From assembly GCA_045633565.1 (NCBI GenBank), contig JAZQYO010000007.1, positions 8,724 to 72,723 of the forward strand: a stretch of 64,000 bases of DNA, given 5' to 3'. The notes beneath the pieces were generated by a model that was not told where the DNA came from, made no database searches, and saw nothing but the letters and a program-made list of their open reading frames with translations. The translations under genes were made by a program, and so were the position numbers. The DNA comes from Clostridia bacterium. GTDB lineage: Bacteria > Bacillota > Clostridia > RUG12999. Of this stretch, positions 14,517-49,186 are shown piece by piece (position 1 is the stretch's first letter; every line of letters starts with the position of its first letter).

Positions 14517-14545
14517 TTGACTTTGCGCCAAAACTGTTATATAAT
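14517..14545 (+). promoter_or_regulatory. sigma-A type promoter of rpsF-ssb-rpsR (TTGACT-17-TATAAT)
   Basis: Near-consensus -35 and -10 boxes with 17-nt spacer, about 65 nt upstream of the rpsF start. Confidence 0.65.
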
Positions 14546-14612
14546 TGTAAAGCTATTATTCCTTACCGCAGGGAATTTTCTGCGGTCAAAAGTCCATGAG
14601 GAGGTGAAAGAA

Positions 14613-14906
14613 ATGACTGAAATTAAAAGAGCTTATGAGACAATCTTTGTTCTCGATGCAACACTCGGCGATGAAGCTATTGAAGCTCTCACAGCCAAAT
14701 TCAAGTCATTAATCGAAAGCAACGCTACCATCGACAGCATTGATGTTTGGGGTAAAAGAAGACTTGCTTACGAAATTAATGACAGAACTGAAGGTCACTA
14801 TGTGCTCGTAAACTTTACTTCAAACCCTGAGTTCCCCAAAGAACTTGAGCGTGTTTACGGTATCACAGACGGCGTTCTCCGTTCAATCGTTATTGTAAAA
14901 GAATAA
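14613..14906 (+). CDS. rpsF: 30S ribosomal protein S6
   Basis: MTEIKRAYETIFVL.. matches the S6 family. Start at ATG 14613 is preceded by GAGGAGGTGA. The ORF-track start at 14517 would lie inside the promoter. Confidence 0.95.
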   Translation: MTEIKRAYETIFVLDATLGDEAIEALTAKFKSLIESNATIDSIDVWGKRRLAYEINDRTEGHYVLVNFTSNPEFPKELERVYGITDGVLRSIVIVKE

Positions 14907-15365: not shown

Positions 15366-15404
15366 TGTTGATTTTACCTAAAATTCTATAAGGAGGAAAT
15401 GAAA

Positions 15405-15653
15405 ATGGCTGACAGAGAAAGAATGGACAGACCTCACGCAAGACGTACAAAGAAAAAAGTTTGTGCTTTCTGCGCTGACAAGGTTGAATCTATCGATTAT
15501 AAAGATGTTGCAAAGCTCCGCAAATATGTTTCTGAAAGAGGCAAGATTCTTCCCAGAAGAATCACAGGCTGCTGCGCAAAACATCAGCGTCAGGTAACTA
15601 CCGCAATTAAAAGAGCAAGAATGATTGCACTCCTGCCCTTCTCGGTAGACTAA
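15405..15653 (+). CDS. rpsR: 30S ribosomal protein S18
   Basis: [37 protein letters not shown] matches the S18 family. ATG 15405 has better AGGAGG spacing than the ATG at 15399. Confidence 0.95.
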
Positions 15654-15666
15654 TTAAAAATTTAAA

Positions 15667-15963
15667 GCCACCCTTCGGCGGTTAGTCTTAGGGAGGAATC
15701 GGTTTCCGAACCACATTTTTAGTTTATACTACATCAAAAAGCACCATAATACGTCAGTATTATGGTGCTTTTAATCTTTATATAATTCTAAAAATCTGCT
15801 TTCGGAAACTGCCGGTGCATCACAAAAAACATTATTTTTTGTGCAGAGCAAGGAAAAACTGTGCGGAAATCCTGTCGGATTCTAAACGGTTTTGACGCCG
15901 CTATGTGCTAAAATAATGTTTTTTGGACGAATAATCCCTAAAACTAACCGCCGCTTGGGTGGC
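15667..15963 (+). repeat. inverted-repeat-bounded ~300-bp non-coding element (MITE-like or long structured RNA) directly after rpsR
   Basis: GCCACCCTTCGGCGGTTAG (15667-15685) is the near-perfect reverse complement (15 of 19 bp) of CTAACCGCCGCTTGGGTGGC (15944-15963), which is followed by T6. Nested inner inverted repeats: CGGTTTCCGAA at ~15701 pairs with TTCGGAAACTGCCG at ~15802, and a perfect hairpin GCACCATAATA-cgtcag-TATTATGGTGC sits at 15741-15768. Confidence 0.45.
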
Positions 15964-15972
15964 TTTTTTGTT

Positions 15973-16260
15973 TTAATTGATATTAATAATTATTTTATCT
16001 TCTGCTGTCGCTAAGAATTTTTCTTCTTCATAATCACAGAAATTGCAAATAACCGCATTATATTCTTCCATTTTAGGTTCTGTAATATAAAACACTTTGG
16101 CGCCTTGCTTTTCTACCGCCTTTTCACACATTTTTTCAAAACTGCTTGTTCCCCTGCTGTGAAATTCTTTAACTCCCCAATTTATCAATAGCCTTACTTT
16201 GTTAAAAATAATTTCCTCCGCATCAAACCCTATCTCATCCCCAACAATATAACATTTCAT
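15973..16260 (-). pseudogene. truncated DUF1273 / YpsA-like SLOG-family fragment
   Basis: 96-105 aa. CYIVGDEIG..GVKEFHSRGTSSFEKMCEKAV..KQGAKVFYI parallels VCFTGRR..GAVHFISGMALGVDMWAAEAI..EKGLDITLE of the full-length DUF1273 gene at 49176-49664. It covers only the N-terminal two-thirds of that gene. Confidence 0.4.
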
Positions 16261-16351
16261 AAAAAACACCTCACTTTCTATATTACACATATACCATATA
16301 ACACTTTTGTTGAATTGTCAATATGTAATATAGCAAATATACTATATACGG

Positions 16352-16573
16352 GTGATGATTTTGAATTACAATATTAAAGTTGTTTTGGATGAGATGTTGC
16401 TTTCGCGCGGAAAAAGTAGATATTGGTTATCAAAAGAAACCGGCATACATTATAAAACCATAGACAGCTATTATAAAAACAAAATTAAACGATACGAAGC
16501 CGATTCCATTTTAAAAATCTGTCTCGCTTTAGATTGCGAAGTTGGCGACATTATTAAAATTGTAAAATGCTAA
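16352..16573 (+). CDS. small XRE-family (Cro/C1-type) HTH DNA-binding protein
   Basis: 73 aa with HTH segment (WLSKETGIHYKTIDSYYKN). Overlaps the next HTH gene by 7 nt. Confidence 0.55.
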   Translation: MMILNYNIKVVLDEMLLSRGKSRYWLSKETGIHYKTIDSYYKNKIKRYEADSILKICLALDCEVGDIIKIVKC

Positions 16574-16821
16574 ATAAAAAAATCTTAATTTCAGAGACCT
16601 TTAGTCAGAATTTAAAAAGAATAAGAAAAAATTCCGGTCTTACGCAGGAGCAAACAGTTGCCAGACTTCAGCTTATGGGGTCTCCCATCAGCAGAAGCAC
16701 CTATTCTCTTATTGAAATGGGTAGAGGTAATATATTTGTAAGCGATTTAGTAGGACTTCAACAAATATTTAATGTTGATTTCAAAGAGTTCTTTGAAGAC
16801 ATTTCTGTAATGAGAGATTAA
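16567..16821 (+). CDS. small XRE-family HTH DNA-binding protein
   Basis: 84 aa with LKRIRKNSGLTQEQTVARLQLMG.. helix-turn-helix. Confidence 0.55.
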   Translation: MLNKKILISETFSQNLKRIRKNSGLTQEQTVARLQLMGSPISRSTYSLIEMGRGNIFVSDLVGLQQIFNVDFKEFFEDISVMRD

Positions 16822-16855
16822 ATTTAGAAAGTTATCTTGAACAGGAAATAAAATA

Positions 16856-17362
16856 ATGGATTTACCGAAACGAAAACGGACGAGATTAAAAGAATATGAT
16901 TATTCAACGCCCGGCGCATATTTTATTACGATATGCGTAAAAGACAAAAAACATTTGTTAGGCAAAATTGTAGGGTGCGGCGATTTCGACGCACCGAAGA
17001 TTATGTTGTCCGGATACGGTCAAATCATTAACAAACACATCAACCTGATGAATGAAAAATATTCACACATTAGTGTAGATAAATATGTAATTATGCCAAA
17101 TCATATTCATTTAATTATTAATGTAAAGGATTATAAAAACGGTGCGTCGGAAACCGCCGCACCCTACAATAACGAAATCTCCAAATTTGTATCACTGTTC
17201 AAAAGATTTTGTAACAAGGAATTTGGTGAAAATATATTCCAGCGGTCATATCACGACCATATTATACGTGGTGAAAAGGATTACAAAAAAATCTGGGAAT
17301 ATGTTGATACGAATGTGCAGAGATGGGAAATGGATTGCTTTTATAATAATGAAAGGTCGTAG
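16856..17362 (+). CDS. IS200/IS605-family Y1 (HUH) transposase-like protein, RAYT / TnpA_REP-like
   Basis: 168 aa with HUH motif (MPNHIHLII), catalytic Tyr motif (QRSYHDHIIR) and N-terminal YDYS..GAYFIT. Typical Y1_Tnp size. No typical IS200 terminal hairpins or tnpB are present. Instead it follows two HTH genes. Confidence 0.8.
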   Translation: MDLPKRKRTRLKEYDYSTPGAYFITICVKDKKHLLGKIVGCGDFDAPKIMLSGYGQIINKHINLMNEKYSHISVDKYVIMPNHIHLIINVKDYKNGASETAAPYNNEISKFVSLFKRFCNKEFGENIFQRSYHDHIIRGEKDYKKIWEYVDTNVQRWEMDCFYNNERS

Positions 17363-27515: not shown

Positions 27516-29462
27516 TTATACATCGAGGTTTGTAACATACTGAGCATTTTCCTCGATGAAAATTCTTCTGGGTTCAACCTCATCACCCATTAAGATACTG
27601 AAGATTTCGTCTGCTCTTTCGGCGTCTTCGAGTGTGACCTTAAGAAGAATTCTGTTTTTGGGGTCCATGGTTGTTTCCCAAAGCTCTTCGGGGTTCATTT
27701 CACCAAGACCTTTATAGCGGCTGATGTCAACCTTGGCATTTTCGTCGCCGTCTTTAAGTTCTGCACTTATGCGGTCTCTTTCTTCGTCACTGAAAGCAAC
27801 CTGGGATTTTTTACCTCTTGAAACCTTATAAAGAGGCGGTTTTGCAAGGTAAATATGCCCTGTTTCAATAAGATCTCTCATAAATCTGAAGAAAAATGTG
27901 AGAAGAAGCGTCTGAATATGAGCGCCGTCAACGTCGGCATCGGCCATAATAATTATTTTGTCATAACGGAGTTTTTCAAGATTAAATTCTTCACCGATTC
28001 CTGTACCAAGCGCCTGAATAACAGGTGTCAGCTTATCATTGCCGTAAACCTTGTCAGCTCTTGCTTTTTCAACATTGAGCATTTTACCCCAGAGGGGGAG
28101 AATAGCCTGATATTTACTGTCTCTGCCATTTTTAGCAGAGCCGCCTGCCGAGTCACCTTCGACAATGTAAATTTCCGTTTTGGTCGGGTCTTTTACAATA
28201 CAGTCGGTAAGTTTGCCGGGAAGCGAGCTTGAACCGAGCGGAGTTTTTCTTGTTGCTTCTCTTGCTTTTCTTGCTGCAAGTCTTGCACGGGAGGCAAGAA
28301 GAGCTTTTTCTATAATAGCACGACCAACCTGCGGGTTTTCTTCAAGGAAGTCCGCAAGCTTTTCTTTTACCATGTTTTCAACAATGGAGCGCATTTCCGA
28401 GTTTCCAAGCTTGGTTTTTGTCTGCCCTTCAAACTGTGGCTCGGTAAGTTTTACGGAAATTACCGCAATAATGCCTTCACGGGCATCGTCACCGGTAAGC
28501 TCTTCGTTATCTTTTATAAGCTTATATTTTCTGCCATAATCGAGCAGCACCTTTGTAAGTGCGGATTTAAAGCCTGTTTCATGTGTTCCGCCCTCAGTTG
28601 TGGAAATGTTGTTGGCAAATGATTCAATTACCTCGTCATAACCATTATTCCACTGAATTGCAACCTCTGCCATGCTTCCGTTTTTCTCACCGCTGACATA
28701 GATTACTTTTTCATGAATATATTCAAGACTGTCACGTCTTGATTTTTTATCGTCAAAAAGGTAGGAAACAAAGTTTCTGATACCGCCGTCATACTGGAGT
28801 ACTTCTTCAACCTTTTCATTTTCACGAAGGTCTGTAAATACTATTCTGATACCACCGTTTAAAAATGCCTGTTCTCTAAGTCTTTTAAGAAGAACATCAT
28901 AGTCATAAACGGTTGTTTCAAAGATTTCATCATCTGCCCAGAAGGTAATTTCAGTACCTGTTCTGTCAGTTTTGCCTGAAATGTGAACTTCGCCGTCCGG
29001 AATGCCCCGTTTATAGCTTTGGCTCCATATATTTTCACCGTCATGAACTTCAACGGTGAGCTTTTTAGACAAAGCATTAACAACCGACGCACCAACACCG
29101 TGCAGACCGCCGGATACTTTATATCCGCCACCGCCGAATTTACCGCCGGCATGAAGCACTGTAAATACAACGTCAATTGTTGAAATTCCCATTTTAGGAT
29201 GAATTCCGTGGGGAATACCACGGCCATTGTCCTTTACAGTAACAGAATTGTCCTTGTTTATAATAACATCAATCTGACTGCAAAATCCTGCCAACGCTTC
29301 GTCAATAGAGTTGTCCACAATTTCATAAACCAGGTGATGCAGACCTCTTTCGGAGGTTGAACCAATATACATACCCGGTCTTTTTCTGACAGCCTCAAGA
29401 CCTTCTAAGACCTGAATTTGGTTTTCATCATAATTATTATTCATCATTTTTTCGGTTTCCAT
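27516..29462 (-). CDS. gyrB: DNA gyrase subunit B
   Basis: 648 aa with GHKL ATPase (..[16 protein letters not shown]..), Toprim (EGDSAGG) and ..PLKGKILNVEKA.. motifs. Confidence 0.97.
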
Positions 29463-33841: not shown

Positions 33842-35185
33842 TTATCTGTCGTCCATAAGAACGTATTCTTTACGCTCACAAACGCTTTTGAAAGCAGGTC
33901 TAATGATTTTTCCGTTGGTTAAAACCTCTTCAATTCTGTGTGAACACCAACCAACTATTCTTGAAACCGCAAACAGTGGTGTATAAAGCTCGGGCGGAAT
34001 GTCAAGCATCTGATAAACAAAGCCCGAATAAAGGTCTATGTTGGCACAGATTGCTTTTTTTACACCCATTTTTTCGCAAAGAATTTCGGGTGAAACCTCT
34101 TCTAAAAGCGCATAAAGGTTAAATTCGTCCATAAGACCTTTTTTTGCAGCCATTTCCTGTGCTTTTTGTTTTAAAACAGCAGCACGTGGGTCTGACAGGG
34201 TATAAACCGCATGGCCCATACCGTAAATAAGACCGGAACCGTTACCCGCCTGTTTTCTTACGATTTTTCGCAGGTAGTCTGCAAGCTCACCTTCACTTGT
34301 CCAGTCCTTAACATTTGTTTTAATTTCATCCATCATATCTAAAACGGCTTTATTTGCACCGCCGTGACGGGGACCTTTAAGTGAACAAATGGCAGAGCCG
34401 ATAGCTGAATATGTATCTGTTCCCGTAGATGAAACTACACGACACGCAAAAGCAGAGTTGTTACCTCCACCATGTTCTGCGTGCAACGTAAGCATAATGT
34501 CCAAAAGTTCCGCTTCTTCAGCAGAAAATTTGCCGTTAGGTCTTATAAGATGCAGAAAATTTTCCGCAGTGGAATTTTCCGATTTTGGCGGATGGATATG
34601 TAAGCTTTCACCTTCAAAATAGTGACGGCGTGCATGGTAAGAATAAGCAACAATTGTACTCATTCTTGAAATAAGCTCAATTGACTGGCGAAGAAGGTTT
34701 TCAAGTGTAAGTTCCTCGGGAGACTGGTCGTAAGAATAGAGAGAAAGAACACTTCTTGCAAGTTTATTCATAATGTCCGGACAGGGGGTTTTCATGATAA
34801 TATCTTCATTGAACCCCACCGGAAGTGTGCGCATCTTACCCAAAAGGCTGCTGAATTTACTATATTCTTCTTTTGACGGAAGTCTGCCAAAAAGCAGTAA
34901 AAATGCCGCTTCTTCATAGCTGGGACGGTTTTCCTCAACCGAATTTTTAATAATTTTTTTAACGTTTACACCCCGGTACATAAGTTTACCGGCAACGGGC
35001 ACTTTATCACAGTCGTCAATAATATAACCGCGAACTTCACCTACCGAAGTAAGACCTGCCAAAACACCTGTACCGTCAGCATTTCTCAGCCCTCTTTTTA
35101 CTTTATAGTTTTTAAAAAGAGAGGGGTCAATACTGTAACTCTCTTTGGCAAGGTCAAGAAAGTCAGTTACTTCTATGTTTTCCAT
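33842..35185 (-). CDS. citrate synthase
   Basis: 447 aa with LHAEHGGGNNSAF..SAICSLKGPRHGGANKAV motifs of the citrate synthase family. Confidence 0.9.
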   Translation of the reverse strand: MENIEVTDFLDLAKESYSIDPSLFKNYKVKRGLRNADGTGVLAGLTSVGEVRGYIIDDCDKVPVAGKLMYRGVNVKKIIKNSVEENRPSYEEAAFLLLFGRLPSKEEYSKFSSLLGKMRTLPVGFNEDIIMKTPCPDIMNKLARSVLSLYSYDQSPEELTLENLLRQSIELISRMSTIVAYSYHARRHYFEGESLHIHPPKSENSTAENFLHLIRPNGKFSAEEAELLDIMLTLHAEHGGGNNSAFACRVVSSTGTDTYSAIGSAICSLKGPRHGGANKAVLDMMDEIKTNVKDWTSEGELADYLRKIVRKQAGNGSGLIYGMGHAVYTLSDPRAAVLKQKAQEMAAKKGLMDEFNLYALLEEVSPEILCEKMGVKKAICANIDLYSGFVYQMLDIPPELYTPLFAVSRIVGWCSHRIEEVLTNGKIIRPAFKSVCERKEYVLMDDR

Positions 35186-35257
35186 AATATTCCTCCTAAA
35201 GAAAAAAAGATTTTTATCCGAAAAAACGAATAAAAATCCTTTTATGTAACCAAAAAA

Positions 35258-35692
35258 CTATTTTTTAAGCTGACGTCTTGCTTCACGGATTTCGTCAAGA
35301 ACAACAGAGGTTGTTTTATCAATTTTTTCCATAATACTGTCAGCATATAAAACAGCATTGCGCTGCATTTCTGACTCCTGACGTCTTGCTTCTGCAAGGA
35401 TTGCTTCAGATTTTTCTTTTGCAGATTTTGTTATTTCGTGTTCGTCAATTAATGCAATAACTCTGTCCTGAGCGTCTTTAACAATTTTTTCAGCCTCAGC
35501 CTGAGCCTCGCTGATAATTCTCTGGCGCTCTTCTTTCACCCAACGTGCTTGTTTAAGCTCTTCGGGCAGTTTAAGACGAATTTCATCCGCCATTGCAAGA
35601 AGCTCCTCTTTATTTACAATTGTATGACCGAAAATATTAAAGCTTTTTTCTACAAGATCGTCCAATTCGTCAATTATCTGTAAAACTTCCAT
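35258..35692 (-). CDS. coiled-coil hypothetical protein (ATP-synthase b/E-subunit-like helical protein)
   Basis: 144 aa, highly charged, with predicted long helices (..AQAEAEKIVKDAQDRV..AEARRQESEMQRNA..). No catalytic motif. Confidence 0.35.
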   Translation of the reverse strand: MEVLQIIDELDDLVEKSFNIFGHTIVNKEELLAMADEIRLKLPEELKQARWVKEERQRIISEAQAEAEKIVKDAQDRVIALIDEHEITKSAKEKSEAILAEARRQESEMQRNAVLYADSIMEKIDKTTSVVLDEIREARRQLKK

Positions 35693-35724
35693 TTTTCTAC
35701 CTCCCGTAAAATAATAAACAGGGT

Positions 35725-36201
35725 CTATTTAAATTTATTGTAAATAGTATCTATACATTGCGGCGGAACAAGATTTGTAATATCCGCACCATAGCTTGCA
35801 AGCTCACGAACCAGACTGGAGCTCACATGTGAAAGCTCGGACGAGGTCATCATAAAAAGAGTTTCAATATCAGGATTTTGCTCACGGTTTGCAAGCGCCA
35901 TCTGAAATTCATACTCAAAGTCAGAAATCATGCGCAGACCTTTAATAATAATTTTAATGTCCTGTTCTTTCATGAAATGAACAAGAAGCTTGTCCGAAGA
36001 AGTGATTTCCACATTGTCAAATCCTGCGGTAACTTCACGAAGCATTTCAACACGTTCGGAAACCGAAAAAGCGGAGTTTTTAGCTTTATTGACAAACACC
36101 GCAACAACCACCTTATCAAAGGTTTTAGATGCCCTGCGGATAATGTCAAGATGACCGTTTGTAACCGGGTCAAAGCTTCCGGGATATACCGCTGTTTTCA
36201 T
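35725..36201 (-). CDS. coaD: phosphopantetheine adenylyltransferase
   Basis: MKTAVYPGSFDPVTNGHLDIIRRA.. carries the canonical (H/T)xGH nucleotidyltransferase motif. 158 aa. Confidence 0.93.
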   Translation of the reverse strand: MKTAVYPGSFDPVTNGHLDIIRRASKTFDKVVVAVFVNKAKNSAFSVSERVEMLREVTAGFDNVEITSSDKLLVHFMKEQDIKIIIKGLRMISDFEYEFQMALANREQNPDIETLFMMTSSELSHVSSSLVRELASYGADITNLVPPQCIDTIYNKFK

Positions 36202-36296
36202 AGATTATCATAGCCTTTCCACAGCATTATATATACTTACTATAACATTATATACTACTTTTTTAAAATAATCAAGTCTTTAAGCAAATTTTTTTG

Positions 36297-36830
36297 TTAT
36301 TTGCCATAAAATCTTACGGCAACCCGTCCGTAAAATCGCTCATCTTTGAGAACGAAGGAAGAAATTTCAGCCGGAAAAACCTCTTGTCTGTCGCTTTCGG
36401 CAACAATAATTCCATCGTCTGCTAAAAGATTTTTTTCGGCAATTATTTTCATGCAGTCTGCAATGTGGCCGGAAAAATAGGGAGGGTCCATAAAAATAAT
36501 ATCAAACTTCTCGTTGCAGCCAAGCAAAAACTTGTCTGCCGGCCGGCAGATAACATTTGCCAAAAGCCTTGTAAATTCAAGGTTTTTCTTTATGATTTCT
36601 GCCGATTTTTGAGATGAGTCAACAAGAGTTGCGCTTTTTGCACCACGACTTAACGCCTCAATTCCTATTGCTCCGCTTCCTGAAAAAAGGTCCAACACAT
36701 CAGCATCCGCAACCTTATCATAGAGAATATTAAAAATGCAGCCCTTTACCTTGTCGGTAGTTGGGCGGGTATCAAGTCCTGACAGAGTTTTCAGAGGCAG
36801 ACCGCCTCTTGATCCCGATATGACACGCAT
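36297..36830 (-). CDS. rsmD: 16S rRNA (guanine966-N2)-methyltransferase RsmD
   Basis: RVISGSRGGLPLKT..VLDLFSGSGAIGIEALSRGA..DPPY motifs. Start at ATG 36830 (MRVISG) with an AAAGGGGA RBS. The ORF-track start at 36869 is less likely. Confidence 0.85.
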   Translation of the reverse strand: MRVISGSRGGLPLKTLSGLDTRPTTDKVKGCIFNILYDKVADADVLDLFSGSGAIGIEALSRGAKSATLVDSSQKSAEIIKKNLEFTRLLANVICRPADKFLLGCNEKFDIIFMDPPYFSGHIADCMKIIAEKNLLADDGIIVAESDRQEVFPAEISSFVLKDERFYGRVAVRFYGK

Positions 36831-36885
36831 AAAAGTCCCCTTTCGCACATTAAAGGAAATCCGCAGCAATGCTGCGGATTAAAAG

Positions 36886-37737
36886 TTAATTAATAATTCG
36901 TCTTGCAGTTACATATCTTGAACTGTAGTAAGCTTCATCAAGACTGCTGGTTCTAACAATATCTCCCGGAACTGTAGCATGAACAAAATTATTGCTACCA
37001 ATGTATATTCCTACGTGAGAGATTCCACCATAGGTGTCAAAGAACACCAGGTCGCCCGGAATAAGCTCATCCCTTGAAACAGCATTTCCCACAGTTGCTT
37101 GTCCTGCTGCGGTACGGGGAAGGGAAATCCCAAACTGTTTATATACATAGCCGGTAAATCCGCTACAGTCAAAACCTGAGGGAGAAGCTCCTCCATAAAT
37201 ATAAGGTGTGCCTATAAGGTTTTTGCCATAATCAACCACACGGCTGCCCAATCTTGTAAAACTACTGCCTTCTCTTGATGAAAGAGAAGAAACATCTCTG
37301 ACAGAAACATAGTCGCTATGTACAAATCTAAGCTGACCGAAAAGAAGAATTTCGTACCAGTTACCCGAAACTCCGGTAAGCTGGACCTCATCTCCGCGCA
37401 CAAGCTGTCCCACAACTTCAGAATCGGTTGAGGGCTTGCTTCGGATATTTAAAAGGTCAGTAGTAATTGTGCCAACGGATTTTACATTAACCGCAACATA
37501 ATCGGCAGAAGCATAAGCCTCCATGCCGTTGTAATTAATACGGTAAAAAGCACCTTCGGCGGAAGATATATTAAGGATTTCTCCTTTATAAGCAGATGAA
37601 ATTTTCTTGCTGTCAGTTGAAGGGGCACTGCGGATGTTAAGCGCGTCTGTTGTTACGGTGCCTTCTGCTGCAAAACAGGAAGTAGCTGTCATAAAAATAA
37701 GTGCAGCAACGGAGGCAACCTTTTTAAACGTGTTCAT
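36886..37737 (-). CDS. NlpC/P60 family peptidoglycan endopeptidase with two SH3b domains
   Basis: Signal peptide, two SH3_3-like repeats (..LNIRSAPSTDSK.. and ..LNIRSKPSTDSE..) and a C-terminal NlpC/P60 domain (DCSGFTGYVY..H..IY). Confidence 0.8.
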   Translation of the reverse strand: MNTFKKVASVAALIFMTATSCFAAEGTVTTDALNIRSAPSTDSKKISSAYKGEILNISSAEGAFYRINYNGMEAYASADYVAVNVKSVGTITTDLLNIRSKPSTDSEVVGQLVRGDEVQLTGVSGNWYEILLFGQLRFVHSDYVSVRDVSSLSSREGSSFTRLGSRVVDYGKNLIGTPYIYGGASPSGFDCSGFTGYVYKQFGISLPRTAAGQATVGNAVSRDELIPGDLVFFDTYGGISHVGIYIGSNNFVHATVPGDIVRTSSLDEAYYSSRYVTARRIIN

Positions 37738-37995: not shown

Positions 37996-38011
37996 GTGTA
38001 TGAAAATTTAA

Positions 38012-38150
38012 TCGGGGTGCTGATTTTCGGCTGAGAAAGCGATTGCTTAACCCGCGAACCTGATACGGATAATGCCGGCGTAGGAATAATAATCGATTAT
38101 TTTGCTCTACTGGGATTTCCCGGTGGAGCTTTTTTAATCCATCAGGAATT
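38012..38150 (+). promoter_or_regulatory. TPP (thiamine pyrophosphate) riboswitch
   Basis: GGGGTGC..GGCTGAGA..AACCC..GAACCTGATACGGATAATGCCGGCGTAGGAA matches the THI-element consensus (CTGAGA, ACCTGATCTGGATAATGCCAGCGTAGGGAA). The downstream gene is thiT. Coordinates are approximate (+/-2). Confidence 0.85.
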
Positions 38151-38182
38151 TTCACTATTATAATAATGAAAAGGTGGTTTTA

Positions 38183-38746
38183 ATGAAAACAAAAAAACTT
38201 ACTCTTGCAGGAATGCTTATTGCTCTTGCCACCGTTTTGTCCCTTATCAAGATTTTTGATATGCCCTATGGAGGCTCGGTTACGGCAGGAAGCATGGTTC
38301 CTATAATTATTTTTTCCATGCAGTGTGACACAAAATGGGGCATAACCCAGGCAATATGCTATTCCATTATACAGTTGATGCTTGGCTGGTACGCACCTCC
38401 TGCCCAGAACTTTGTTTCCTTTGCAGCAGTAATTTTGCTGGATTATGTAATAGCTTTCGGCGGACTTGGACTTGCAGGCCCGATAGCTCGCAGACTCGGA
38501 GGAGGCCGGTCGGCAACAGCCGTCGGCGTGATTTTGGTTCTTTTTATAAGATTTTTATGCCATTTTTTGTCAGGAATTTTAATCTGGGGAAGCTTTGCTC
38601 CCGAAGGTCAACCGGTATGGCTCTATTCGCTGCTGTATAATGGTGGATATATGCTCGGAGAAACGGTTGTAACATTGGCAGCAACCCTTTTGCTCCTTTC
38701 ACGCAAAGGCCAAAACTGTAAAAATTTACCAAAAAGCGGTGTATAA
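38183..38746 (+). CDS. thiT: thiamine ECF-transporter substrate-binding (S) component ThiT
   Basis: 187 aa with 6 TM helices, preceded by a TPP riboswitch. ATG 38183 has an AAGGTGG RBS. The ORF-track GTG 38174 is also possible. Confidence 0.8.
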   Translation: MKTKKLTLAGMLIALATVLSLIKIFDMPYGGSVTAGSMVPIIIFSMQCDTKWGITQAICYSIIQLMLGWYAPPAQNFVSFAAVILLDYVIAFGGLGLAGPIARRLGGGRSATAVGVILVLFIRFLCHFLSGILIWGSFAPEGQPVWLYSLLYNGGYMLGETVVTLAATLLLLSRKGQNCKNLPKSGV

Positions 38747-38799: not shown

Positions 38800-38860
38800 T
38801 TGTTCAATAAATTTGAACAAAACGTAAAAAATTGAAAAAAATGTTCAAAAATATTGAACA
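38800..38860. promoter_or_regulatory. two palindromic operator-like sites TGTTCAA-N5-TTGAACA overlapping the promoter of the spo0A-like gene
   Basis: TTGTTCAATAAATTTGAACAA (38800-38820) and TGTTCAAAAATATTGAACA (38842-38860). The second overlaps the -35 (TTGAAC, 38854-38859) of a TTGAAC-17-TATACT (38877-38882) promoter. Confidence 0.45.
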
Positions 38861-38914
38861 CTCTCCTTTTTTGTGTTATACTAAAGGCATCAAATACAGC
38901 AAGGAGAGACAAAA

Positions 38915-39700
38915 ATGGGAAACACAATACTTATAATTGACGATAACAGAGAGTATGGGGACAAGCTTAAAAAGGAACTGGCTGTTTATCCGGAATTTGG
39001 TGAAATTTTAAATGCAACCGGTGGCAGGGCGGGCCGTGATATGGCTGCAAGATATAATGTCGATGTTATTGTTTGTGAAGCTATCATGAGAGATGGAGAT
39101 GGATTTTCGGTTGTTGAGGATATTTTGAGGACTTCCGTTACAAAGCCTGTTATAATAATGATATCTTCATTTACCAATGAAGCCATGATTGCAAGGGCGG
39201 CGTCAAGCGGTGCGTCTTTTTATCTGCCCAAGCCTTTTGACGCTACAACTCTTTACCAGCACATCTCGTTTTTCACCAAAATGAAGGAAAAACCTGTTAA
39301 TGCCATGATAAGCGAGACGGACGATGACGAGTATGACATTGAAATAATGGTAAGCAATATGATAAAAACCATTGGTGTTCCGGCACACATTAAAGGATAT
39401 CAGTTCCTGCGTGATGCCATAATGTGGGTGGTTGAGGATATGGAGCTTATCAACGCCGTAACAAAAGAGCTTTATCCCGGAATTGCGAAGAAGCATAAAA
39501 CAACCTCATCAAGGGTTGAACGGGCAATTCGCCATGCTATAGAGGTGTCCTGGCAGAGAGGCGACGTGGAAACATTAAACAAGCTTTTCGGTCACACTGT
39601 GAAATTTACCAAGGACAAGCCCACAAACTCAGAGTTTATCGCAATGATAGCTGACAGGATAAGACTTCAGCTTAAACGACAGGGCAAAAAAGCGTCTTAA
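38915..39700 (+). CDS. spo0A: Spo0A-like response regulator (Spo0A_C DNA-binding domain) with Glu at the predicted phospho-acceptor position
   Basis: The C-terminal region [53 protein letters not shown] is diagnostic of Spo0A_C. The receiver domain has DD (res 9-10) and the conserved K (LPKPF). Where Spo0A has LVLDIIMP (D56) this protein reads IVCEAIMR. Confidence 0.85.
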
Positions 39701-39750: not shown

Positions 39751-39776
39751 AAAAGCCACCGAAAGGTGGCTTTTTT
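39751..39776 (+). terminator. terminator (AAAAGCCACC-gaaa-GGTGGCTTTTTT)
   Basis: Hairpin plus T6 50 nt after the spo0A-like stop. Confidence 0.75.
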
Positions 39777-40857: not shown

Positions 40858-40890
40858 AAAAGCTGCCCACCGGGCAGCTTTTACTTTTTT
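40856..40890. terminator. bidirectional terminator (AGCTGCCC-accg-GGCAGCT flanked by A5 and T-runs)
   Basis: Serves azlD on the plus strand and the XRE gene 40881-41096 on the minus strand. Confidence 0.65.
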
Positions 40891-41096
40891 GGATAAGGCT
40901 TTTTCTCGTCAGTAAGTCCTGCTAAATAGTCCATACTGGTATCAAGGGCAATCGCAAGTTTTCTGCATTGTTCAAATGTAAAATATCTTTTTCCGCTTTC
41001 GAGTTTGGAATAATCACTTTGGTCAATTCCTGTCAGCATCTGCATTTTTACCTGTGTATATCCCTTTTCTTTTCGTAGTTCTTTTAATCTGTTCAT
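40881..41096 (-). CDS. XRE-family HTH transcriptional regulator (tandem paralogue 2)
   Basis: 71 aa with HTH (KGYTQVKMQMLTGIDQSDYSKLESGKR). C-terminus ..EKKPYPKK is identical to the tail of the upstream paralogue. Confidence 0.6.
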   Translation of the reverse strand: MNRLKELRKEKGYTQVKMQMLTGIDQSDYSKLESGKRYFTFEQCRKLAIALDTSMDYLAGLTDEKKPYPKK

Positions 41097-41100: not shown

Positions 41101-41325
41101 TCATTTTTTTGGATAAGGCTTTTTCTCTGAAGAAACGCCGCAAATATAGTTCATATCTACATCGTAATAGCGGGCTAATAATATAACACTGTCTAAAGGA
41201 ATTCTTGTTTTACCAAGCTCATAGTCGGAGTATGTTTTCTGACCTATATTCAAAAGTCTTGCTATTTCTGTCTGATTTTTGTCTGCATCTTCACGAAGTC
41301 CACGAATTCTCTCAATTGCATCCAT
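41101..41325 (-). CDS. XRE-family HTH transcriptional regulator (tandem paralogue 1)
   Basis: 74 aa with HTH (QTEIARLLNIGQKTYSDYELGKTR). Same ..EKKPYPKK C-terminus. The 3' DNA (TTTTTGGATAAGGCTTTTTCTC) is repeated at the end of both genes. Confidence 0.6.
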   Translation of the reverse strand: MDAIERIRGLREDADKNQTEIARLLNIGQKTYSDYELGKTRIPLDSVILLARYYDVDMNYICGVSSEKKPYPKK

Positions 41326-43330: not shown

Positions 43331-43492
43331 TATAATCGCTCCTTTATCAACTAATTATAAACAACCGGGTCCGATTTGTCAAGATTAATAAAATAATTTT
43401 CAATGACTCTTGCATTTTTTACACAAATATCGTATAATAAAAGTAGGTATATTATTTTTTTGCCGCACACAAGCGGCGGAAGGGAGATTTTT

Positions 43493-43855
43493 ATGGATTT
43501 TATGAATGTTGTAAGAGAAAAAGCGGCAGCACTGGCTCATGGTGCGGTAAAAACTTCAAATGCAGTTGTAGAAACGGTTAAATCCAATCTGGCTATTGCA
43601 GATAAAGAAGCCGAAACCACAAAAATTCTCCGTCAGCTGGGCACACTTATGTATGATGCTTACAAGGATGGCTCAGATGTTGATGCAGATGCAGTTGCAG
43701 AAAAATGTGCAGCTTTAGATGACTATTTCAGCGAAATCGCAGCTTTAAAGGAAAAAGTAGGCGAAATTAAAAACACAAAAACTTGTCCGAAATGCAACGC
43801 AAAGGTTAAGGCGGATTTTAAATTCTGCCCCGTTTGCGGCGAAAAAATGGACTAA
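43493..43855 (+). CDS. zinc-ribbon domain protein
   Basis: 120 aa from ATG 43493 (RBS GGAAGGGAG). C-terminal CPKCNAKVKADFKFCPVCGEK zinc ribbon. Promoter TTGCAT-17-TATAAT lies upstream. Confidence 0.5.
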   Translation: MDFMNVVREKAAALAHGAVKTSNAVVETVKSNLAIADKEAETTKILRQLGTLMYDAYKDGSDVDADAVAEKCAALDDYFSEIAALKEKVGEIKNTKTCPKCNAKVKADFKFCPVCGEKMD

Positions 43856-43885
43856 GTCCCATTACTACAAAAGAGGTGAAAACCC

Positions 43886-44593
43886 GTGCAAAGACTTATT
43901 TTAGTCGTTGAGGACGAAAAACCTATTCTTGATATTTTGCAGTTCAATCTTGAAAAGGAAGGATATAAGGTTGCGACCGCTATGGACGGAGAAACTGCTG
44001 TTTCATCAGCAATTCAGCTTAACCCCGACCTTATTTTGCTTGATGTTATGCTTCCGGGAATGGACGGATTTGAGGTGTGCAAAAATGTCCGCACACGCTC
44101 GGATGTGCCTATAATTATGCTGACAGCAAGAGGCGAAGAGGTAGATAAAATTCTTGGTCTTGAGATAGGTGCCGACGATTATATTACAAAACCGTTCAGC
44201 ATGAGGGAGCTTTCGGCAAGAATAAAGGCCAATATGCGCAGAACTGCGCCTGTTGAAGGGGAACAGCCATCTTCTTCGGGTGGGAAAATTATTCAGTCAG
44301 GTCAGCTTAAGATTGACTGTGACCGTTACGAGGTTTACCGTGACGGCCAGCCGGTTATTCTTACCCTGCGTGAATTTGAACTTATCAAATTCCTCGCAAT
44401 GCAGCCTGAAAAGGTTTTCTCCCGCGAAACACTGCTTGAAAGAGTATGGGGATACGAATTTTTCGGCGATGTCCGCACAGTGGATGTTACCGTTCGCCGT
44501 CTGAGGGAAAAGGTCGAAGAGGATCCCTCTGCGCCCAGGTATATTATGACCAAACGAGGCGTAGGTTACTATTTTAATAATAAAGAGGTTTAA
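43886..44593 (+). CDS. OmpR/PhoB-family response regulator (WalR/YycF-like)
   Basis: Receiver (..LLDVMLPGMDGFEV.., K at ITKPF) plus winged-helix trans_reg_C. GTG start. Immediately upstream of the cognate kinase. Confidence 0.9.
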   Translation: MQRLILVVEDEKPILDILQFNLEKEGYKVATAMDGETAVSSAIQLNPDLILLDVMLPGMDGFEVCKNVRTRSDVPIIMLTARGEEVDKILGLEIGADDYITKPFSMRELSARIKANMRRTAPVEGEQPSSSGGKIIQSGQLKIDCDRYEVYRDGQPVILTLREFELIKFLAMQPEKVFSRETLLERVWGYEFFGDVRTVDVTVRRLREKVEEDPSAPRYIMTKRGVGYYFNNKEV

Positions 44594-44599
44594 TGCCCA

Positions 44600-46381
44600 A
44601 TGTTTAAAAGCGTCAGACTGAAAATTGTATTAATGTTTGTTCTGATGGTGGTGTCCGTCATTGTTATGGTGGGCACCTTTTTCCGTATGAGCATTTCTTC
44701 GTATTATACCAATGAATTTTCTCAGAAAATAACCTCTCAGGCAGCTGCCGAGCTTTCGGACAGGATAACAGACCTTGCAATTTCGGGAGCTCCGCATGAT
44801 GAGATAGCATCTGTAATAGAAACCTATTCGTCACGGCTTGGGGTGGACATGTTCCGAACGGTATATATTCTGGACGGAATTTCCGCACAGACCGTCTATC
44901 ACACAAACACAGCAAGCATTGCGACTCTTGAAAAAACTCCCAACATCATTGCAGCACTCAGCGGAAGTGAAGGAAAAACGCTGACGGACGAGCAGTCCTA
45001 TATGGATTGGGCAAAACCTGTCATGACAGGCGATGAAGTTGCGTATATTCTTTATGTGAAGGACACCAAAGAGGAGCTTGATGAAATTGTTGGCAGCATG
45101 CTGAAAATTATTCTTCAGGCGATGCTTTTCGGTCTTGGAATTTCACTTCTTTTGGGATATTTTATGTCAAAAACCATCACATCGCCCATCATTTCGCTGA
45201 CACGCAGCGCAGAAAGACTTGCTGCCGGTGATTTTTCCCAGAAAATAAACTCTGAGGCGGACGATGAAATAGGTCAGCTTTCGCGGACCTTTAATGAAAT
45301 GGCGACACGCATAAAGGACAATGTCACCACAATTGAAGAAGAAAAAAATAAAATGACTGCCATTTTAATGCACATGACGGACGGTGTTATGGCGTTTGAC
45401 TCGGCAGGCAAGCTTATTCATATAAACCGTGCGGCAATCCGCATAATCGGCAAACATAATGCCGAAAATGTTACATTTGGTGAATTTTTCGAAAAAATTG
45501 GTGCAGATATTTCCCTGTCAGAGATTTCTTTCAGAAAAAATGAAACAATAACCCGTGATATAGATATTGGCGGAAAACACATTCAGCTCTTTTTTGCAAC
45601 AAGTGGCAGCAAAAAGGACTCTATGTCGGCAATTATTGTTATGCTCCGTGATGTTACCGAACAGATGAAGCTTGAAATGTCAAGACGTGAGTTTGTTTCC
45701 AATGTTTCACACGAGCTGAGGACGCCTATTACCACAATAAAAACCTATGCTGAAACGCTGCTTGAATCTGAGGATATTCCTCCCGAAATGGAGAAAAACT
45801 TCCTTGGCGTTATGCATAGTGAAGCGGACCGGATGGCACGACTTGTTTCCGACCTCCTGGACCTTTCAAAGCTTGATTATAACCCCAACGATATGCAAAA
45901 AGAGCATTTTGACTTAAAAGCGCTGCTGGAAGATGTTGTTAAAAAGCTGGGACTTGAGGCGACTGCAAGAAACCAGGATTTATCCCTGTCTTTTGCGAAC
46001 ACAATGAAACCCATTTTCGGCAACCGGGACAGAATTGAACAGGTGATTACCAACATAATTTCCAACGCAATAAAATACACTCCCGACGGTGGTGAAATTA
46101 AGGTTTCGGCAGGAAATATTTACAGTAGTTTTTACATTAAAGTCAAAGACAGTGGTGTAGGAATTCCCAAAGAGGACCTGCAGCACATCTTCGAGAGGTT
46201 TTACCGTGTTGACAAAGCCCGCAGCCGTCGAAGCGGCGGAACGGGGCTTGGGCTGGCCATTGCAAAGGAAATTGTGGAGGCGCATGGTGGCCAGATTAAG
46301 ATTGAAAGTGAATTTGGCGAGGGTACGCTTGTTACCGTTAAGTTTCCCGTTAAACCTACGGGAGCCGAGCATAAGGTCTGA
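44600..46381 (+). CDS. sensor histidine kinase (WalK/VicK-like; TM, HAMP, PAS, HisKA, HATPase_c)
   Basis: Two TM segments flank a ~150-aa extracellular loop. HAMP, PAS (..MTDGVMAFD..), H-box (SHELRTPIT) and N/G boxes (..GGTGLGLAIAKEIVEAHGG..) are present. Confidence 0.9.
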   Translation: MFKSVRLKIVLMFVLMVVSVIVMVGTFFRMSISSYYTNEFSQKITSQAAAELSDRITDLAISGAPHDEIASVIETYSSRLGVDMFRTVYILDGISAQTVYHTNTASIATLEKTPNIIAALSGSEGKTLTDEQSYMDWAKPVMTGDEVAYILYVKDTKEELDEIVGSMLKIILQAMLFGLGISLLLGYFMSKTITSPIISLTRSAERLAAGDFSQKINSEADDEIGQLSRTFNEMATRIKDNVTTIEEEKNKMTAILMHMTDGVMAFDSAGKLIHINRAAIRIIGKHNAENVTFGEFFEKIGADISLSEISFRKNETITRDIDIGGKHIQLFFATSGSKKDSMSAIIVMLRDVTEQMKLEMSRREFVSNVSHELRTPITTIKTYAETLLESEDIPPEMEKNFLGVMHSEADRMARLVSDLLDLSKLDYNPNDMQKEHFDLKALLEDVVKKLGLEATARNQDLSLSFANTMKPIFGNRDRIEQVITNIISNAIKYTPDGGEIKVSAGNIYSSFYIKVKDSGVGIPKEDLQHIFERFYRVDKARSRRSGGTGLGLAIAKEIVEAHGGQIKIESEFGEGTLVTVKFPVKPTGAEHKV

Positions 46382-46474
46382 AATGTTAATCTAACTTAAT
46401 GCTGCTGTAATTGTTTTGTAATAATTATAGTGTATAATAGACTTACTTAAAACTCCCGGAAAGGATGGAAAGTT

Positions 46475-46966
46475 ATGAAACGAGTATCCATAATACTGCT
46501 TCTGGCACTTGTTTTCTCTTTCTGCGCTATAGGTCAGGTTATGGCTGCACCGCAGGAAATGGCAACAGTTCCGGCAAGCGACGGTATGCTTTACATAGAT
46601 ATTTACAACCCCGAAACCGTTGTTTCCACCACTACACAGAAGGACTATGTTCTTTCGGGCGTGGCGAAAAGTGGCGTGATTGTGAGTGTTTATATGTATG
46701 ACAAAGCGACCGCAAAATATAAAATGGTTGAAAATGGCGGTGCTATGGCAGTACAGACAATTGGTGCAAGCGGCTATTTTGCTCAGCGTGTGTCTTTGTC
46801 TGAAGGCAAAAATGATATCCTGGTGCGTGTAGATTCTGCTCAGGATTCTGAAGTTGCGTCTCAGGTAGTACGTCTTGAAATTAATCTCCTTGTTGACAGT
46901 TTCTGGAGCAAAATAAAAAATGCTTCCGCAAACATGATGCAGGAGCTTAAGAACTCTTTTAAATAA
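46475..46966 (+). CDS. secreted hypothetical protein
   Basis: 163 aa with signal peptide (..FCAIGQVMAAP..). Inserted between the kinase and the yycH-like gene. Confidence 0.5.
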   Translation: MKRVSIILLLALVFSFCAIGQVMAAPQEMATVPASDGMLYIDIYNPETVVSTTTQKDYVLSGVAKSGVIVSVYMYDKATAKYKMVENGGAMAVQTIGASGYFAQRVSLSEGKNDILVRVDSAQDSEVASQVVRLEINLLVDSFWSKIKNASANMMQELKNSFK

Positions 46967-46970
46967 TATT

Positions 46971-48371
46971 ATGAAGAAGGAAATAGTAAAAAACAGCATA
47001 CTTACCCTTCTCATATTCATCTGTGTATTTTTATTCTATAAAATATGGTTTAGCGAAAAATTATGGTCCTCGGACTATAATTTTTTTGCTGCTTTATGGG
47101 GTAATCAGCCCATAGCGGTTGACACATCCTCGTCTATAGAGGACATTCTTCAGCCTGAAAAAATCATTTTTTCCGGTGGCGGAAAAAGATTTGTTTCCAC
47201 AAAGGGAGAAAGTGGCTTTGAAGGTTATTATAATGAAGTGAAATCTGTTCTCGGAAAAATAACGGAAAAAACAAAATTTGCAGAATCTACCGAAGAAGAA
47301 ATGATTTCGGCAATCAAAGCATCGTCGGTAACTGTTGATTTCGGCACCGTTTTCAGTGGCGAAACAGGCACATTTTTAGGCACATATTTCCCGTGTGAAA
47401 GTGTCCGTGATGTTGTTATTTCCTTAAATGACACCGCACTGGGCAAGCCGGTTGTATTTGTCCGTGACCATAAAGGAGGCGCCGTTTATAAAGCGGTAGC
47501 TGATATGCCGCTGGATAAACTGTCAGAATCTGTTTCCGGCCATATATTAAAAAATTCCGGCGAAAATATTCCCTTTGCATTTGAACTGGGATTTAACAGG
47601 ACAGACACCACCGAAGGCAGCGAAATTTCCCGCAAAATTCTTTTAAATTCAAACATATTAATCGGTCTTACAGATGTGACGGCACCCGCTATTAAGATAA
47701 CACCACCGGAAGAGACAGAACTTCCGTCCTCCAAGCTTAATATGCTGCTCAGCCAGTTTGGTATTGAAAGGGCAACTGCAAGAAAATATATTGAAACAAA
47801 TGATGATGTTTTGTTTGTTGGCAGTGGAGCAACTCTTAAAATATCCAAATCGGGAACACTTGAATACCAGGCAGAAGCATCCGGACCTGTCATTTATGAC
47901 GCATCTTCGAAAAATGCGCTTCCGTCAGCGGTGGGAAACATTTTCAGCCTGGTCAGAACAGTATTCAGAAGCTTTGATATTTCCTCACCTGCACTGCAGA
48001 TTTCATCGGACCTTGTTAATCTGCCCAACGCTTCGGGTGAAATAACGGTATATATTGACTATTATCTGGACAGTATTCCGGTTATGGCGTGGGATAATGG
48101 TCATGCTATAAGCATTACCGTAAAAAACGGCAGACTCATTTCTTACAAACAACAGATTTGCACCCTGTCAAAAGGTGATGGAAAGCTTACGGCGGGGAAC
48201 ATGCTTCAGGCGGTAGACGGTCTTTATGCCGTACTTCCGCTTAAGGAGGATGAAACGGCAACCGTTTCAGACATATTTGTTGCATACACCGGCGAAGATA
48301 GTATTTCCTGGTGTGCAAAAATAGATGGCAGCGACAGACTTATAGTAATAAATAAGGAGGGAACACCATGA
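46971..48371 (+). CDS. YycH-like two-component-system regulatory protein
   Basis: 466 aa with a single N-terminal TM (MKKEIVKNSILTLLIFICVFLFYKIWF) resembling the B. subtilis YycH N-terminus. Position after walK-like kinase. Confidence 0.55.
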   Translation: MKKEIVKNSILTLLIFICVFLFYKIWFSEKLWSSDYNFFAALWGNQPIAVDTSSSIEDILQPEKIIFSGGGKRFVSTKGESGFEGYYNEVKSVLGKITEKTKFAESTEEEMISAIKASSVTVDFGTVFSGETGTFLGTYFPCESVRDVVISLNDTALGKPVVFVRDHKGGAVYKAVADMPLDKLSESVSGHILKNSGENIPFAFELGFNRTDTTEGSEISRKILLNSNILIGLTDVTAPAIKITPPEETELPSSKLNMLLSQFGIERATARKYIETNDDVLFVGSGATLKISKSGTLEYQAEASGPVIYDASSKNALPSAVGNIFSLVRTVFRSFDISSPALQISSDLVNLPNASGEITVYIDYYLDSIPVMAWDNGHAISITVKNGRLISYKQQICTLSKGDGKLTAGNMLQAVDGLYAVLPLKEDETATVSDIFVAYTGEDSISWCAKIDGSDRLIVINKEGTP

Positions 48372-49186
48372 ACTGGCCAAGAGTAAAAACCATCCTTATT
48401 TTTCTGTTTCTGGCGGTGGATATTATGCTGCTCTGCTCAATTATTATTCCGTCGGTGACCTTAAGCCGTATTCCTCAGGAAACCATAAGGAATACAGCAG
48501 ATGTTTTATCGCAGAGAGGGATAGAAATTTCGCCCGAAATTATTCCTGCCCGCAGGGAAAGTATGGGCATTGTCGAGCTTTATAACATCTGGCCAGACAA
48601 AGAGGCTGTTGCCGAAAAGCTGCTTGGCAAAGCACCAGTTTTAAGCGGAGAGGTTTATAAAAACGGAACAAAAACACTTACCTTTCAGCAAGACGGGTTC
48701 AACTATAAAAACAGTGCAACAGTAAAAACAGTTGCACACGAGCTAATTGAAATGGGAATAGATGTCAGGGACAATTTTTACGAAGAGGGCGAGTCCTCGC
48801 TCAGGTCCTGGCAGACAATTGAAGATAAAAAACTTTTTGAGTCGGAGATTTATGCAGCGCAGACAGGTGCGGAAGTAACAGTTACCGGCTACTGGATTTT
48901 CTCGGACAGGGAAAACGGCATAATAATAAACACGCCCGATACACTTCTTGACGTAACAGGCGTGCTGATAGATTTTATAAATAATCCCTTAAGGGAACCG
49001 GAAGTTAAAATAACCTCGGTTGAAACAGGATATTCGGCAGGCACGGCATACCGTGACATGTCCCACAAGCTGGTATCGGTTTCGCCGGCATATAAAATCA
49101 GTACCGACACGGGTGCATATTATATATACGACGCACTTTCGGGAAACTTCCTTTATGCCTGCAAAAATGGAGAAATTATATACTGA
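48368..49186 (+). CDS. YycI-like two-component-system regulatory protein
   Basis: 272 aa. N-terminus MNWPRVKTILIFLFLAVDIMLL resembles YycI (MDWNKTKTIFIVAFLILNVFL..). 4-nt overlap with the yycH-like gene. Confidence 0.55.
   Translation: MNWPRVKTILIFLFLAVDIMLLCSIIIPSVTLSRIPQETIRNTADVLSQRGIEISPEIIPARRESMGIVELYNIWPDKEAVAEKLLGKAPVLSGEVYKNGTKTLTFQQDGFNYKNSATVKTVAHELIEMGIDVRDNFYEEGESSLRSWQTIEDKKLFESEIYAAQTGAEVTVTGYWIFSDRENGIIINTPDTLLDVTGVLIDFINNPLREPEVKITSVETGYSAGTAYRDMSHKLVSVSPAYKISTDTGAYYIYDALSGNFLYACKNGEIIY

Follow-up and report, generated by a model that had tools for sequence, protein, structure and literature searches.

A Spo0A orthologue with glutamate in place of the phospho-acceptor aspartate in a Clostridia lineage

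Can Spo0A, the master switch of sporulation, still be of use to a bacterium once it has lost the aspartate on which it is phosphorylated? The question is raised by a gene at positions 38915-39700 (plus strand) of a 64,000-nucleotide stretch of contig JAZQYO010000007.1 from a Clostridia bacterium (assembly GCA_045633565.1, contig positions 8,724 to 72,723), hereafter called the window. To my knowledge, Spo0A phosphorylation is the sporulation decision point in every spore-former studied, and every Spo0A studied has the acceptor aspartate. Until it is phosphorylated, Spo0A is kept inactive by the receiver domain; phosphorylation of the acceptor aspartate leads to dimerisation and DNA binding (PMC3533761). 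The 261-residue product of the window gene is a Spo0A in which glutamate occupies this position. An earlier note on this DNA had drawn attention to the glutamate and had offered two ideas to account for it, a phosphorylation-independent paralogue of Spo0A or, if the gene were the only copy, an unusually wired master switch.

The receiver and its acceptor position

By architecture, score, fold and synteny, the open reading frame is a genuine full-length Spo0A. Its product is named 'MAG: sporulation transcription factor Spo0A [Clostridia bacterium]' in GenBank (MBR6524273.1; MAG, metagenome-assembled genome), a label that says Spo0A only and leaves the substitution unmarked. Copies in ENA bear the tag XIEF21, probably that of a ruminant gut MAG project. 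Pfam recognises a receiver (REC) domain at residues 5-117 (38927-39265, plus strand; Response_reg, E = 2.3e-16) and a C-terminal Spo0A_C DNA-binding/transactivation domain at residues 146-249 (39350-39661, plus strand; E = 4.6e-43), and the protein scores 261.2 bits against the NCBIfam equivalog TIGR02875 'spore_0_A', above the cut-off of 200. The C-terminal half matches the solved domains 1LQ1 and 1FC3 over residues 142-254 (phmmer, E of about 1e-42), is 56-60% identical to solved Spo0A C-domains and keeps the recognition helix and the sigma-contact region. An AlphaFold2 model was built from a 77-sequence alignment (mean predicted local distance difference test score 86.6, above 92 in the receiver), and Foldseek places the modelled C-domain on 1FC3 and 1LQ1 with TM-scores of 0.89-0.94. 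Forty alignment columns are invariant, and the sole one lying outside the C-domain is that of K106, in the receiver. The lineage is probably Monoglobales, since the closest homologue bearing a taxon name is that of a 'Monoglobales bacterium' (82% identity), the sole basis for this assignment.

The position of the glutamate was established by three routes that agree. Receiver residues 4-118 align without a gap to residues 4-118 of the Geobacillus stearothermophilus Spo0A receiver (1DZ3/1QMP; phmmer), and in this alignment the segment DILLLDIIMPHLDG puts the phosphorylated aspartate of 1QMP over Glu55, which is encoded by the GAA codon at 39077-39079 (plus strand). In a MAFFT alignment with 120 homologues, residues D10/D11, D56, T86, F105 and K108 of Bacillus subtilis Spo0A correspond to D9/D10, E55, S84, Y103 and K106 of the window protein, respectively. 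Finally, the modelled receiver consists of five beta-alpha units (strands at residues 3-8, 28-34, 51-55, 79-84 and 102-105) and superimposes on the phosphorylated receiver 1QMP with a target-normalised TM-score of 0.91 and a root-mean-square deviation of 1.7 Å; E55 is the final residue of beta3, the usual place of receiver acceptors. The gapless alignment and the placement of E55 at the end of beta3 in the model together rule out a misalignment that would hide another, genuine aspartate at the acceptor position. The central observation of the earlier note, as well as its statements that the C-terminal domain is Spo0A_C and that the acidic pair at residues 9-10 and the pocket lysine are kept, are therefore borne out. 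As judged from the alignments and the model, Glu55 occupies the acceptor position and, because it replaces the acceptor aspartate, the protein is predicted to be unable to accept phosphate at the usual place, which would preclude phosphorylation there by a sporulation kinase or a phosphorelay.

The protein lacks the mechanistic hallmark of Spo0A, the phosphorylatable aspartate that closes beta3 and is D56 in the B. subtilis protein. Having a receiver fold and a residue other than aspartate, Glu55, at the acceptor position, it belongs with the aspartate-less receivers (ALRs) and departs from the canonical response regulators, defined by an acceptor aspartate and a cognate kinase or phosphorelay: the aspartate is absent and, within the window, the gene has no linked kinase. 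The loop that follows the acceptor is also altered, reading 'AIMRDGDG' versus 'IIMPHLDG' in the B. subtilis and G. stearothermophilus proteins, with loss of the conserved proline. Three changes around the acceptor are specific to the clade of glutamate-bearing (Glu-type) relatives: an alanine at +1, the loss of the conserved proline at +4 ('IMRDGDG') and an added acidic residue in the loop. The cysteine at -1 is common to the aspartate-bearing (Asp-type) relatives ('VVVCD') and so is not tied to the glutamate change; the beta3 alteration described earlier as 'LD to CE' is real in that a cysteine precedes the glutamate, but the two residues are not linked. D60 and D62 were rejected as stand-in acceptors, since they are not conserved in the clade (the corresponding segment of protein P0015 reads 'RNGEG').

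Fixation, orthology and recurrence

A protein of identical sequence is encoded by 8 contigs, each obtained from a separate sample. Glutamate stands at the acceptor column in 16/16 members of the clade (74-91% identity), accompanied by D9, D10, S84, Y/F103 and K106, and the nearest relatives outside the clade have aspartate. In a neighbour-joining tree, the Glu-type sequences of this clade form one monophyletic group that branches from within the Asp-type Spo0As. At codon 55, three divergent Glu-type genes with saturated synonymous sites have GAA, and three Asp-type relatives have GAT or GAC. Mean pairwise identity inside the clade is 77% for the receiver, 41% for the linker and 96% for the C-domain. 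Between the window gene and its counterpart at the Glu-type locus L084, the proportions of nonsynonymous (pN) and synonymous (pS) differences are 0.124 and 0.681 in the receiver, and 0.008 and 0.670 in the C-domain. When Glu-Glu pairs are matched with Asp-Asp pairs of equal C-domain identity, receiver identities are 0.81 vs 0.81, 0.76 vs 0.68 and 0.61 vs 0.65. Given the low pN relative to pS and these matched identities, the sequences indicate that both domains are kept by purifying selection and that the receiver is constrained as much as in Asp-type Spo0As. A scan of metagenome contigs with the receiver and linker as query returned unrelated response regulators only and no close relatives. 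The matches listed from a genome-contig scan for Spo0A, which cover 80 GTDB species and are dominated by the pan-Spo0A peptide 'EFIAMIAD', include at least one close relative (L004).

The surroundings of the gene bear on its origin. The minus strand carries, in order, gyrB, remA, recF, dnaN, dnaA, a citrate synthase gene, a gene for a 144-residue hypothetical protein (hyp144), coaD, rsmD and an NlpC/P60 gene; the plus strand then carries a thiamine pyrophosphate (TPP) riboswitch (38003-38104; Rfam, 70.4 bits), thiT (38174-38746), spo0A, azlC and azlD, the flanks that the earlier note had named. The distance between spo0A and dnaA is about 5 kb. Gene order is the same at the Glu-type locus L084 (85% identity). 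The closest Asp-type Spo0A (P0016, 67% identity; locus L086) also has thiT directly upstream. Two further Asp-type proteins, P0021 (62%) and P0024 (60%), are encoded next to a divergent citrate synthase-hyp144-(coaD)-rsmD-NlpC/P60 block, and the block of the window (33842-37737, minus strand, ending in the NlpC/P60-SH3 gene) is syntenic with the Asp-type loci L087 and L088. Since the shared blocks contain single-copy housekeeping genes, these three proteins come from other genomes and their genes are orthologues. Because its neighbours are common to L086, L087 and L088, the Glu-type gene is, on the evidence of synteny, the positional orthologue of canonical spo0A. A 74%-identical Glu-type relative (L004/L085) lies in a different neighbourhood, and the neighbourhood has therefore been rearranged within the Glu clade. 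The weight formerly placed on a 'non-canonical neighbourhood' is not warranted, since the nearest Asp-type Spo0As share it and it is typical of the lineage. Linkage to spoIVB is seen in 20/88 of the Spo0A loci compared, two of these 20 being Glu-type loci of other lineages (L017 and L046, with the Glu-type gene directly after spoIVB); such linkage being rare, its absence here is uninformative. A second Spo0A was not found within the 64 kb window, and the gene is probably the lineage's only copy.

Two observations on the neighbours are recorded here. The hyp144 protein (35258-35692, minus strand) is conserved, shows a weak DivIVA-like match and always lies between citrate synthase and coaD/rsmD next to spo0A, at Glu-type and Asp-type loci alike (L001, L084, L087 and L088). 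Downstream of azlD, two adjacent genes (40881-41096 and 41101-41325, minus strand) encode small Xre-type helix-turn-helix proteins of 71 and 74 residues that both end in 'EKKPYPKK'; they are unlikely to be conserved partners of spo0A, being absent from the otherwise syntenic Glu-type locus L084.

The substitution is not confined to this clade. Among 123 full-length representatives of the 50%-identity clusters nearest the query, the acceptor residue is D in 99, E in 9, N in 3, G in 3, S in 2, and Y, M and A in 1 each, with a gap in 4. The matches listed from the 80 GTDB species loci comprise at least six further Glu-type and at least two Asn-type Spo0As. One of the Glu-type proteins comes from a genome labelled Oscillibacter valericigenes An907, and a search seeded with it found Glu in 20 and Asp in 98 of the 119 closest clusters. 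The Glu sequences of this search form a 19-cluster Oscillospiraceae clade plus one isolated tip, An907, whose 88%-identical neighbours have aspartate; the sequences that bear on this Oscillospiraceae recurrence are L017 10001-10723, P0425 and P0474-P0541. A separate Glu clade has three members (P0071, P0074 and P0079), and the Glu clades span 15, 19 and 3 clusters. From these sequences, the Asp-to-Glu change is estimated to have arisen at least five times independently in Spo0A. Glutamate accounts for 2/8 of the amino-acid replacements accessible from GAT/GAC by single-base changes; since it dominates and forms long-lived clades despite this mutational share, it appears to be preferred over other replacements, which suggests that glutamate retains a function that the other residues do not. 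No tie was drawn between glutamate and the non-sporulating O. valericigenes type strain, the Glu-type locus being that of An907, with Asp-type relatives at 88% identity.

The sister clade of the Glu clade (P0017, P0026, P0028, P0029, P0031, P0033, P0034 and P0036) keeps the acceptor aspartate; its magnesium-binding DD pair has become E/G followed by N/S, the acceptor region reads 'CDADITxENVF' and the 'MPxxDG' loop is lost. At the sequence level the phosphorylation pocket of Spo0A has thus eroded a second time and in another way, and phospho-chemistry may have been loosening in the wider lineage. Other departures from the usual Spo0A complement were met in the survey. A Ruminococcaceae MAG (L044; RUG12786) carries two Spo0A-like genes 4 kb apart (10001-10738 and 14030-14743), both with the acceptor aspartate and the first one after spoIVB. 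Some proteins of the set P0262, P0263, P0264 and P0285 have 3-4 tandem Spo0A_C domains and no receiver, and one protein of 1003 residues combines, according to Pfam, 3 Spo0A_C domains with a sigma-70 region 4 and with 5 RNA polymerase alpha C-terminal domains.

Control of a Spo0A with glutamate at the acceptor position

If the protein cannot be phosphorylated at the canonical site, its activity may be set by its amount, and the upstream region of the gene is of interest in this respect. A predicted sigma-70-type promoter (TTGAAC, 17 nt, TATACT, with a TG upstream of the -10; 38854-38882, plus strand) is kept in orthologous upstream regions. Two perfect palindromes TGTTCAA-N5-TTGAACA, which are candidate operators, lie 41 bp apart at 38801-38819 and 38842-38860, the proximal one overlapping the -35; they are the only matches to this motif in the 64 kb window when 2 mismatches are allowed. 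The motif is kept in the Glu-type locus L084 and partly in L085, and the Asp-type loci L086 and L088 have GTACAA-N5-TTGTAC instead. Since Asp-type relatives also have palindromes at this place, the arrangement is not specific to the Glu state. Downstream, a hairpin GCCACC-GAAA-GGTGGC followed by TTTTTT (39755-39776, plus strand), read from the sequence and not listed by the computational scan, is a likely intrinsic terminator. With a promoter of its own and this likely terminator, spo0A is likely to be monocistronic, and the candidate operators are consistent with transcriptional gating.

The reading I favour, to which I would give an even chance, is that the gene is the lineage's own orthologous spo0A, with an aspartate-less and probably phosphomimetic receiver, and that its activity depends on how strongly it is expressed or on inputs other than phosphoryl groups. 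K106, S84 and the acidic pair would hold the longer carboxylate of Glu55 so that it partially mimics the acyl phosphate; this mimicry would bias the receiver towards the active, dimerisation-competent state, and the biased receiver would relieve the inhibition of an otherwise canonical Spo0A_C domain. Control would then shift from phosphorylation to the amount of protein, to non-phosphoryl inputs acting on the still-constrained receiver, or to both. A monocistronic gene with two candidate operators, one of them over the -35, would fit control by expression level. Glutamate, the commonest acceptor replacement in aspartate-less receivers (26% of the class), activates NtrC and others without phosphate (PMC4395418). 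The earlier suggestion of a 'weakly constitutively on' receiver draws on mutants of other regulators, and an Asp-to-Glu change alone is often insufficient (PMC4395418). The accompanying suggestion of an unusually wired sole master switch accounts for the gene better than a paralogue does, and falls short of proof, the search for a second copy having covered the 64 kb window.

Several points weigh against a phosphomimetic Spo0A that is active in sporulation. The Asp-to-Glu change alone failed to activate CheY, PhoB and B. subtilis Spo0A itself unless combined with other changes (PMC4395418). The canonical 0A box TGTCGAA occurs twice in the 64 kb window, versus 7.2 occurrences expected from shuffles; at least as many are present in 99/100 shuffles, so that the window holds fewer than chance, and both boxes (11056-11062 and 28158-28164) are intragenic, in polC and gyrB. 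Being intragenic and below chance, they give no target-site support, and no classical Spo0A target promoter was found within the window. A machine-learning study classed its one Monoglobus MAG as a non-spore-former; for the sister family, UBA1381, it predicted that a MAG belongs to a spore-former (PMC12536801).

In a different view of the glutamate, it simply abolishes activation: Spo0A would be locked off or attenuated, the lineage would have lost or be losing endospore formation, and a basal, phosphorylation-independent role would be kept, such as weakly repressing or activating genes unrelated to sporulation. I consider this possible, though rather doubtful. The Monoglobus prediction is what it would lead one to expect, and many bacteria that encode Spo0A form no spores (PMC3533761); one non-sporulating example, the type strain of O. 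valericigenes, encodes Spo0A and all the sporulation sigma factors (PMC3558957), and a Glu-type Spo0A is present in An907, which bears the name of that species. The different decay of the pocket in the sister clade and the inactivity of several regulators that carry the Asp-to-Glu change alone (PMC4395418) also point this way. However, a receiver as constrained as that of Asp-type Spo0As, with the remainder of its pocket invariant in the clade, is unexpected if the pocket has no function; glutamate is over-represented and has persisted longer than the other replacements; and the closest database relatives of the An907 protein have aspartate. In addition, spoIIP, which the earlier note had reported, is indeed intact (13338-14531, minus strand; Pfam SpoIIP, E = 1.3e-58) and conserved across the clade, with full-length orthologues of 60-84% identity in relatives, one of them reported on a contig of 48,020 bp, the length also of the contig carrying the 85%-identical Glu-type Spo0A; this argues, as far as one gene can, against wholesale decay of sporulation genes.

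That the gene is a specialised paralogue, with a canonical Asp-type spo0A elsewhere in the genome doing the phosphorylation-dependent job, is improbable. Some Clostridia do carry two Spo0A-like genes, as in the Ruminococcaceae MAG mentioned above, but in the three nearest Asp-type groups the gene has an equivalent position by synteny, beside single-copy housekeeping genes, and is an orthologue, the C-domain is under extreme constraint, the protein exceeds the Spo0A equivalog cut-off and the window holds no second copy; synteny thus speaks for a positional orthologue against the first of the two ideas in the earlier note. Phosphorylation control at another residue, be it another pocket or loop aspartate or a serine, threonine or tyrosine, is still harder to accept. 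D9, D10, D60 and D62 lie near the pocket, and aspartate-less receivers can bear other modifications (PMC4395418). Against this stand the variability of D60 and D62 in the clade and the lack of any kinase seen to be linked to the gene: the window has a single two-component pair, the histidine kinase and OmpR-type regulator of a WalRK-like operon, and no other histidine kinase. Residues of the D9/D10 type serve as magnesium ligands throughout the receiver family and are not known to act as acceptors. That codon 55 was misread in sequencing or assembly can be dismissed, given the identical protein on 8 independent contigs, the GAA codon in three divergent genes and the glutamate in every clade member.

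Other features of the window, known counterparts and implications

The WalRK-like operon (43403-49186, plus strand) encodes a zinc-ribbon protein, the OmpR-type regulator, the HAMP histidine kinase and then three proteins, two of which are weakly similar to YycH and YycI. Next to spoIIP, a 183-residue open reading frame (12711-13262, minus strand) covers about the first 167 of the 453 positions of glycoside hydrolase family 1 and is probably a truncated gene remnant. A 168-residue open reading frame (16856-17362, plus strand), preceded by a stretch poor in open reading frames (15366-16855), shows sub-threshold similarity to an IS200-type Y1 transposase (E = 1e-3).

The window protein resembles the B. 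subtilis and G. stearothermophilus Spo0As (1QMP, 1DZ3, 1FC3, 1LQ1) in its two-domain layout and in the gap-free alignment of its receiver; it differs from them by Glu55 in place of the acceptor aspartate, and its gene is not beside spoIVB. OmpR D55E and B. subtilis Spo0A-sad67 are laboratory mutants, phosphomimetic or phosphorylation-independent, in which phosphotransfer is uncoupled from output. As in the laboratory phosphomimetic NtrC D54E, the acceptor carboxylate is one methylene longer (PMC4395418). Unlike these mutants, which were made in the laboratory, the glutamate of the window protein is natural, clade-fixed and under selection. With the ALR regulators the protein shares a receiver fold devoid of a phosphorylatable aspartate, and it keeps, as they do, the first acidic residue, the pocket lysine and the Ser/Thr-aromatic switch residues (PMC4395418). 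ChxR of Chlamydia trachomatis, which has glutamate at the acceptor position and binds DNA constitutively, is one example of the class (PMC4395418), and RitR is another. Unlike most ALRs, the window protein retains the second acidic residue, which is kept by just 29% of them (PMC4395418), and its output domain is Spo0A_C. In the survey of these receivers Spo0A appears solely in the form of a laboratory mutant and is not counted among the natural ALRs (PMC4395418). Non-sporulating Clostridia such as Oscillibacter valericigenes, whose spores have never been observed, likewise keep Spo0A and sporulation regulatory genes, and the papers that describe them treat Spo0A as ordinary and leave its acceptor residue unmentioned (PMC3558957; PMC3533761). 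A natural Asp-to-Glu change at the Spo0A acceptor was not found described in the literature searched (sporulation genomics, Oscillibacter, Monoglobus and ALRs). Aspartate-less receivers as such are already known, and the window protein stands for a natural, clade-wide and recurrent aspartate-less Spo0A.

A bolder proposal, which I put forward tentatively and would not expect to hold in full, is that entire clades of gut Clostridia do without His-Asp phosphotransfer and rely on a naturally phosphomimetic Glu-Spo0A to initiate sporulation or to operate the Spo0A regulon. It would cover the probable Monoglobales clade, the 19-cluster Oscillospiraceae clade and several smaller lineages, and activity would be set by transcription through the palindromic candidate operators or by the binding of a ligand or partner to the still-constrained receiver. 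If this is true, the phosphorylation step that is held to be universal for Spo0A would prove dispensable, with replacements on several occasions.

When sporulation is predicted from genomes and MAGs, finding spo0A is widely taken as evidence for it (e.g. PMC11536998, PMC12536801). A Spo0A that is maintained by selection and yet not phosphorylatable at the canonical site would mean either that the decision to sporulate is taken elsewhere in abundant gut lineages, or that 'spo0A present' overstates how capable of sporulation they are. As an inexpensive marker that can be read from sequence, the acceptor residue could sharpen such predictions, and the repeated Asp-to-Glu changes constitute natural experiments on phosphomimicry in receiver domains.

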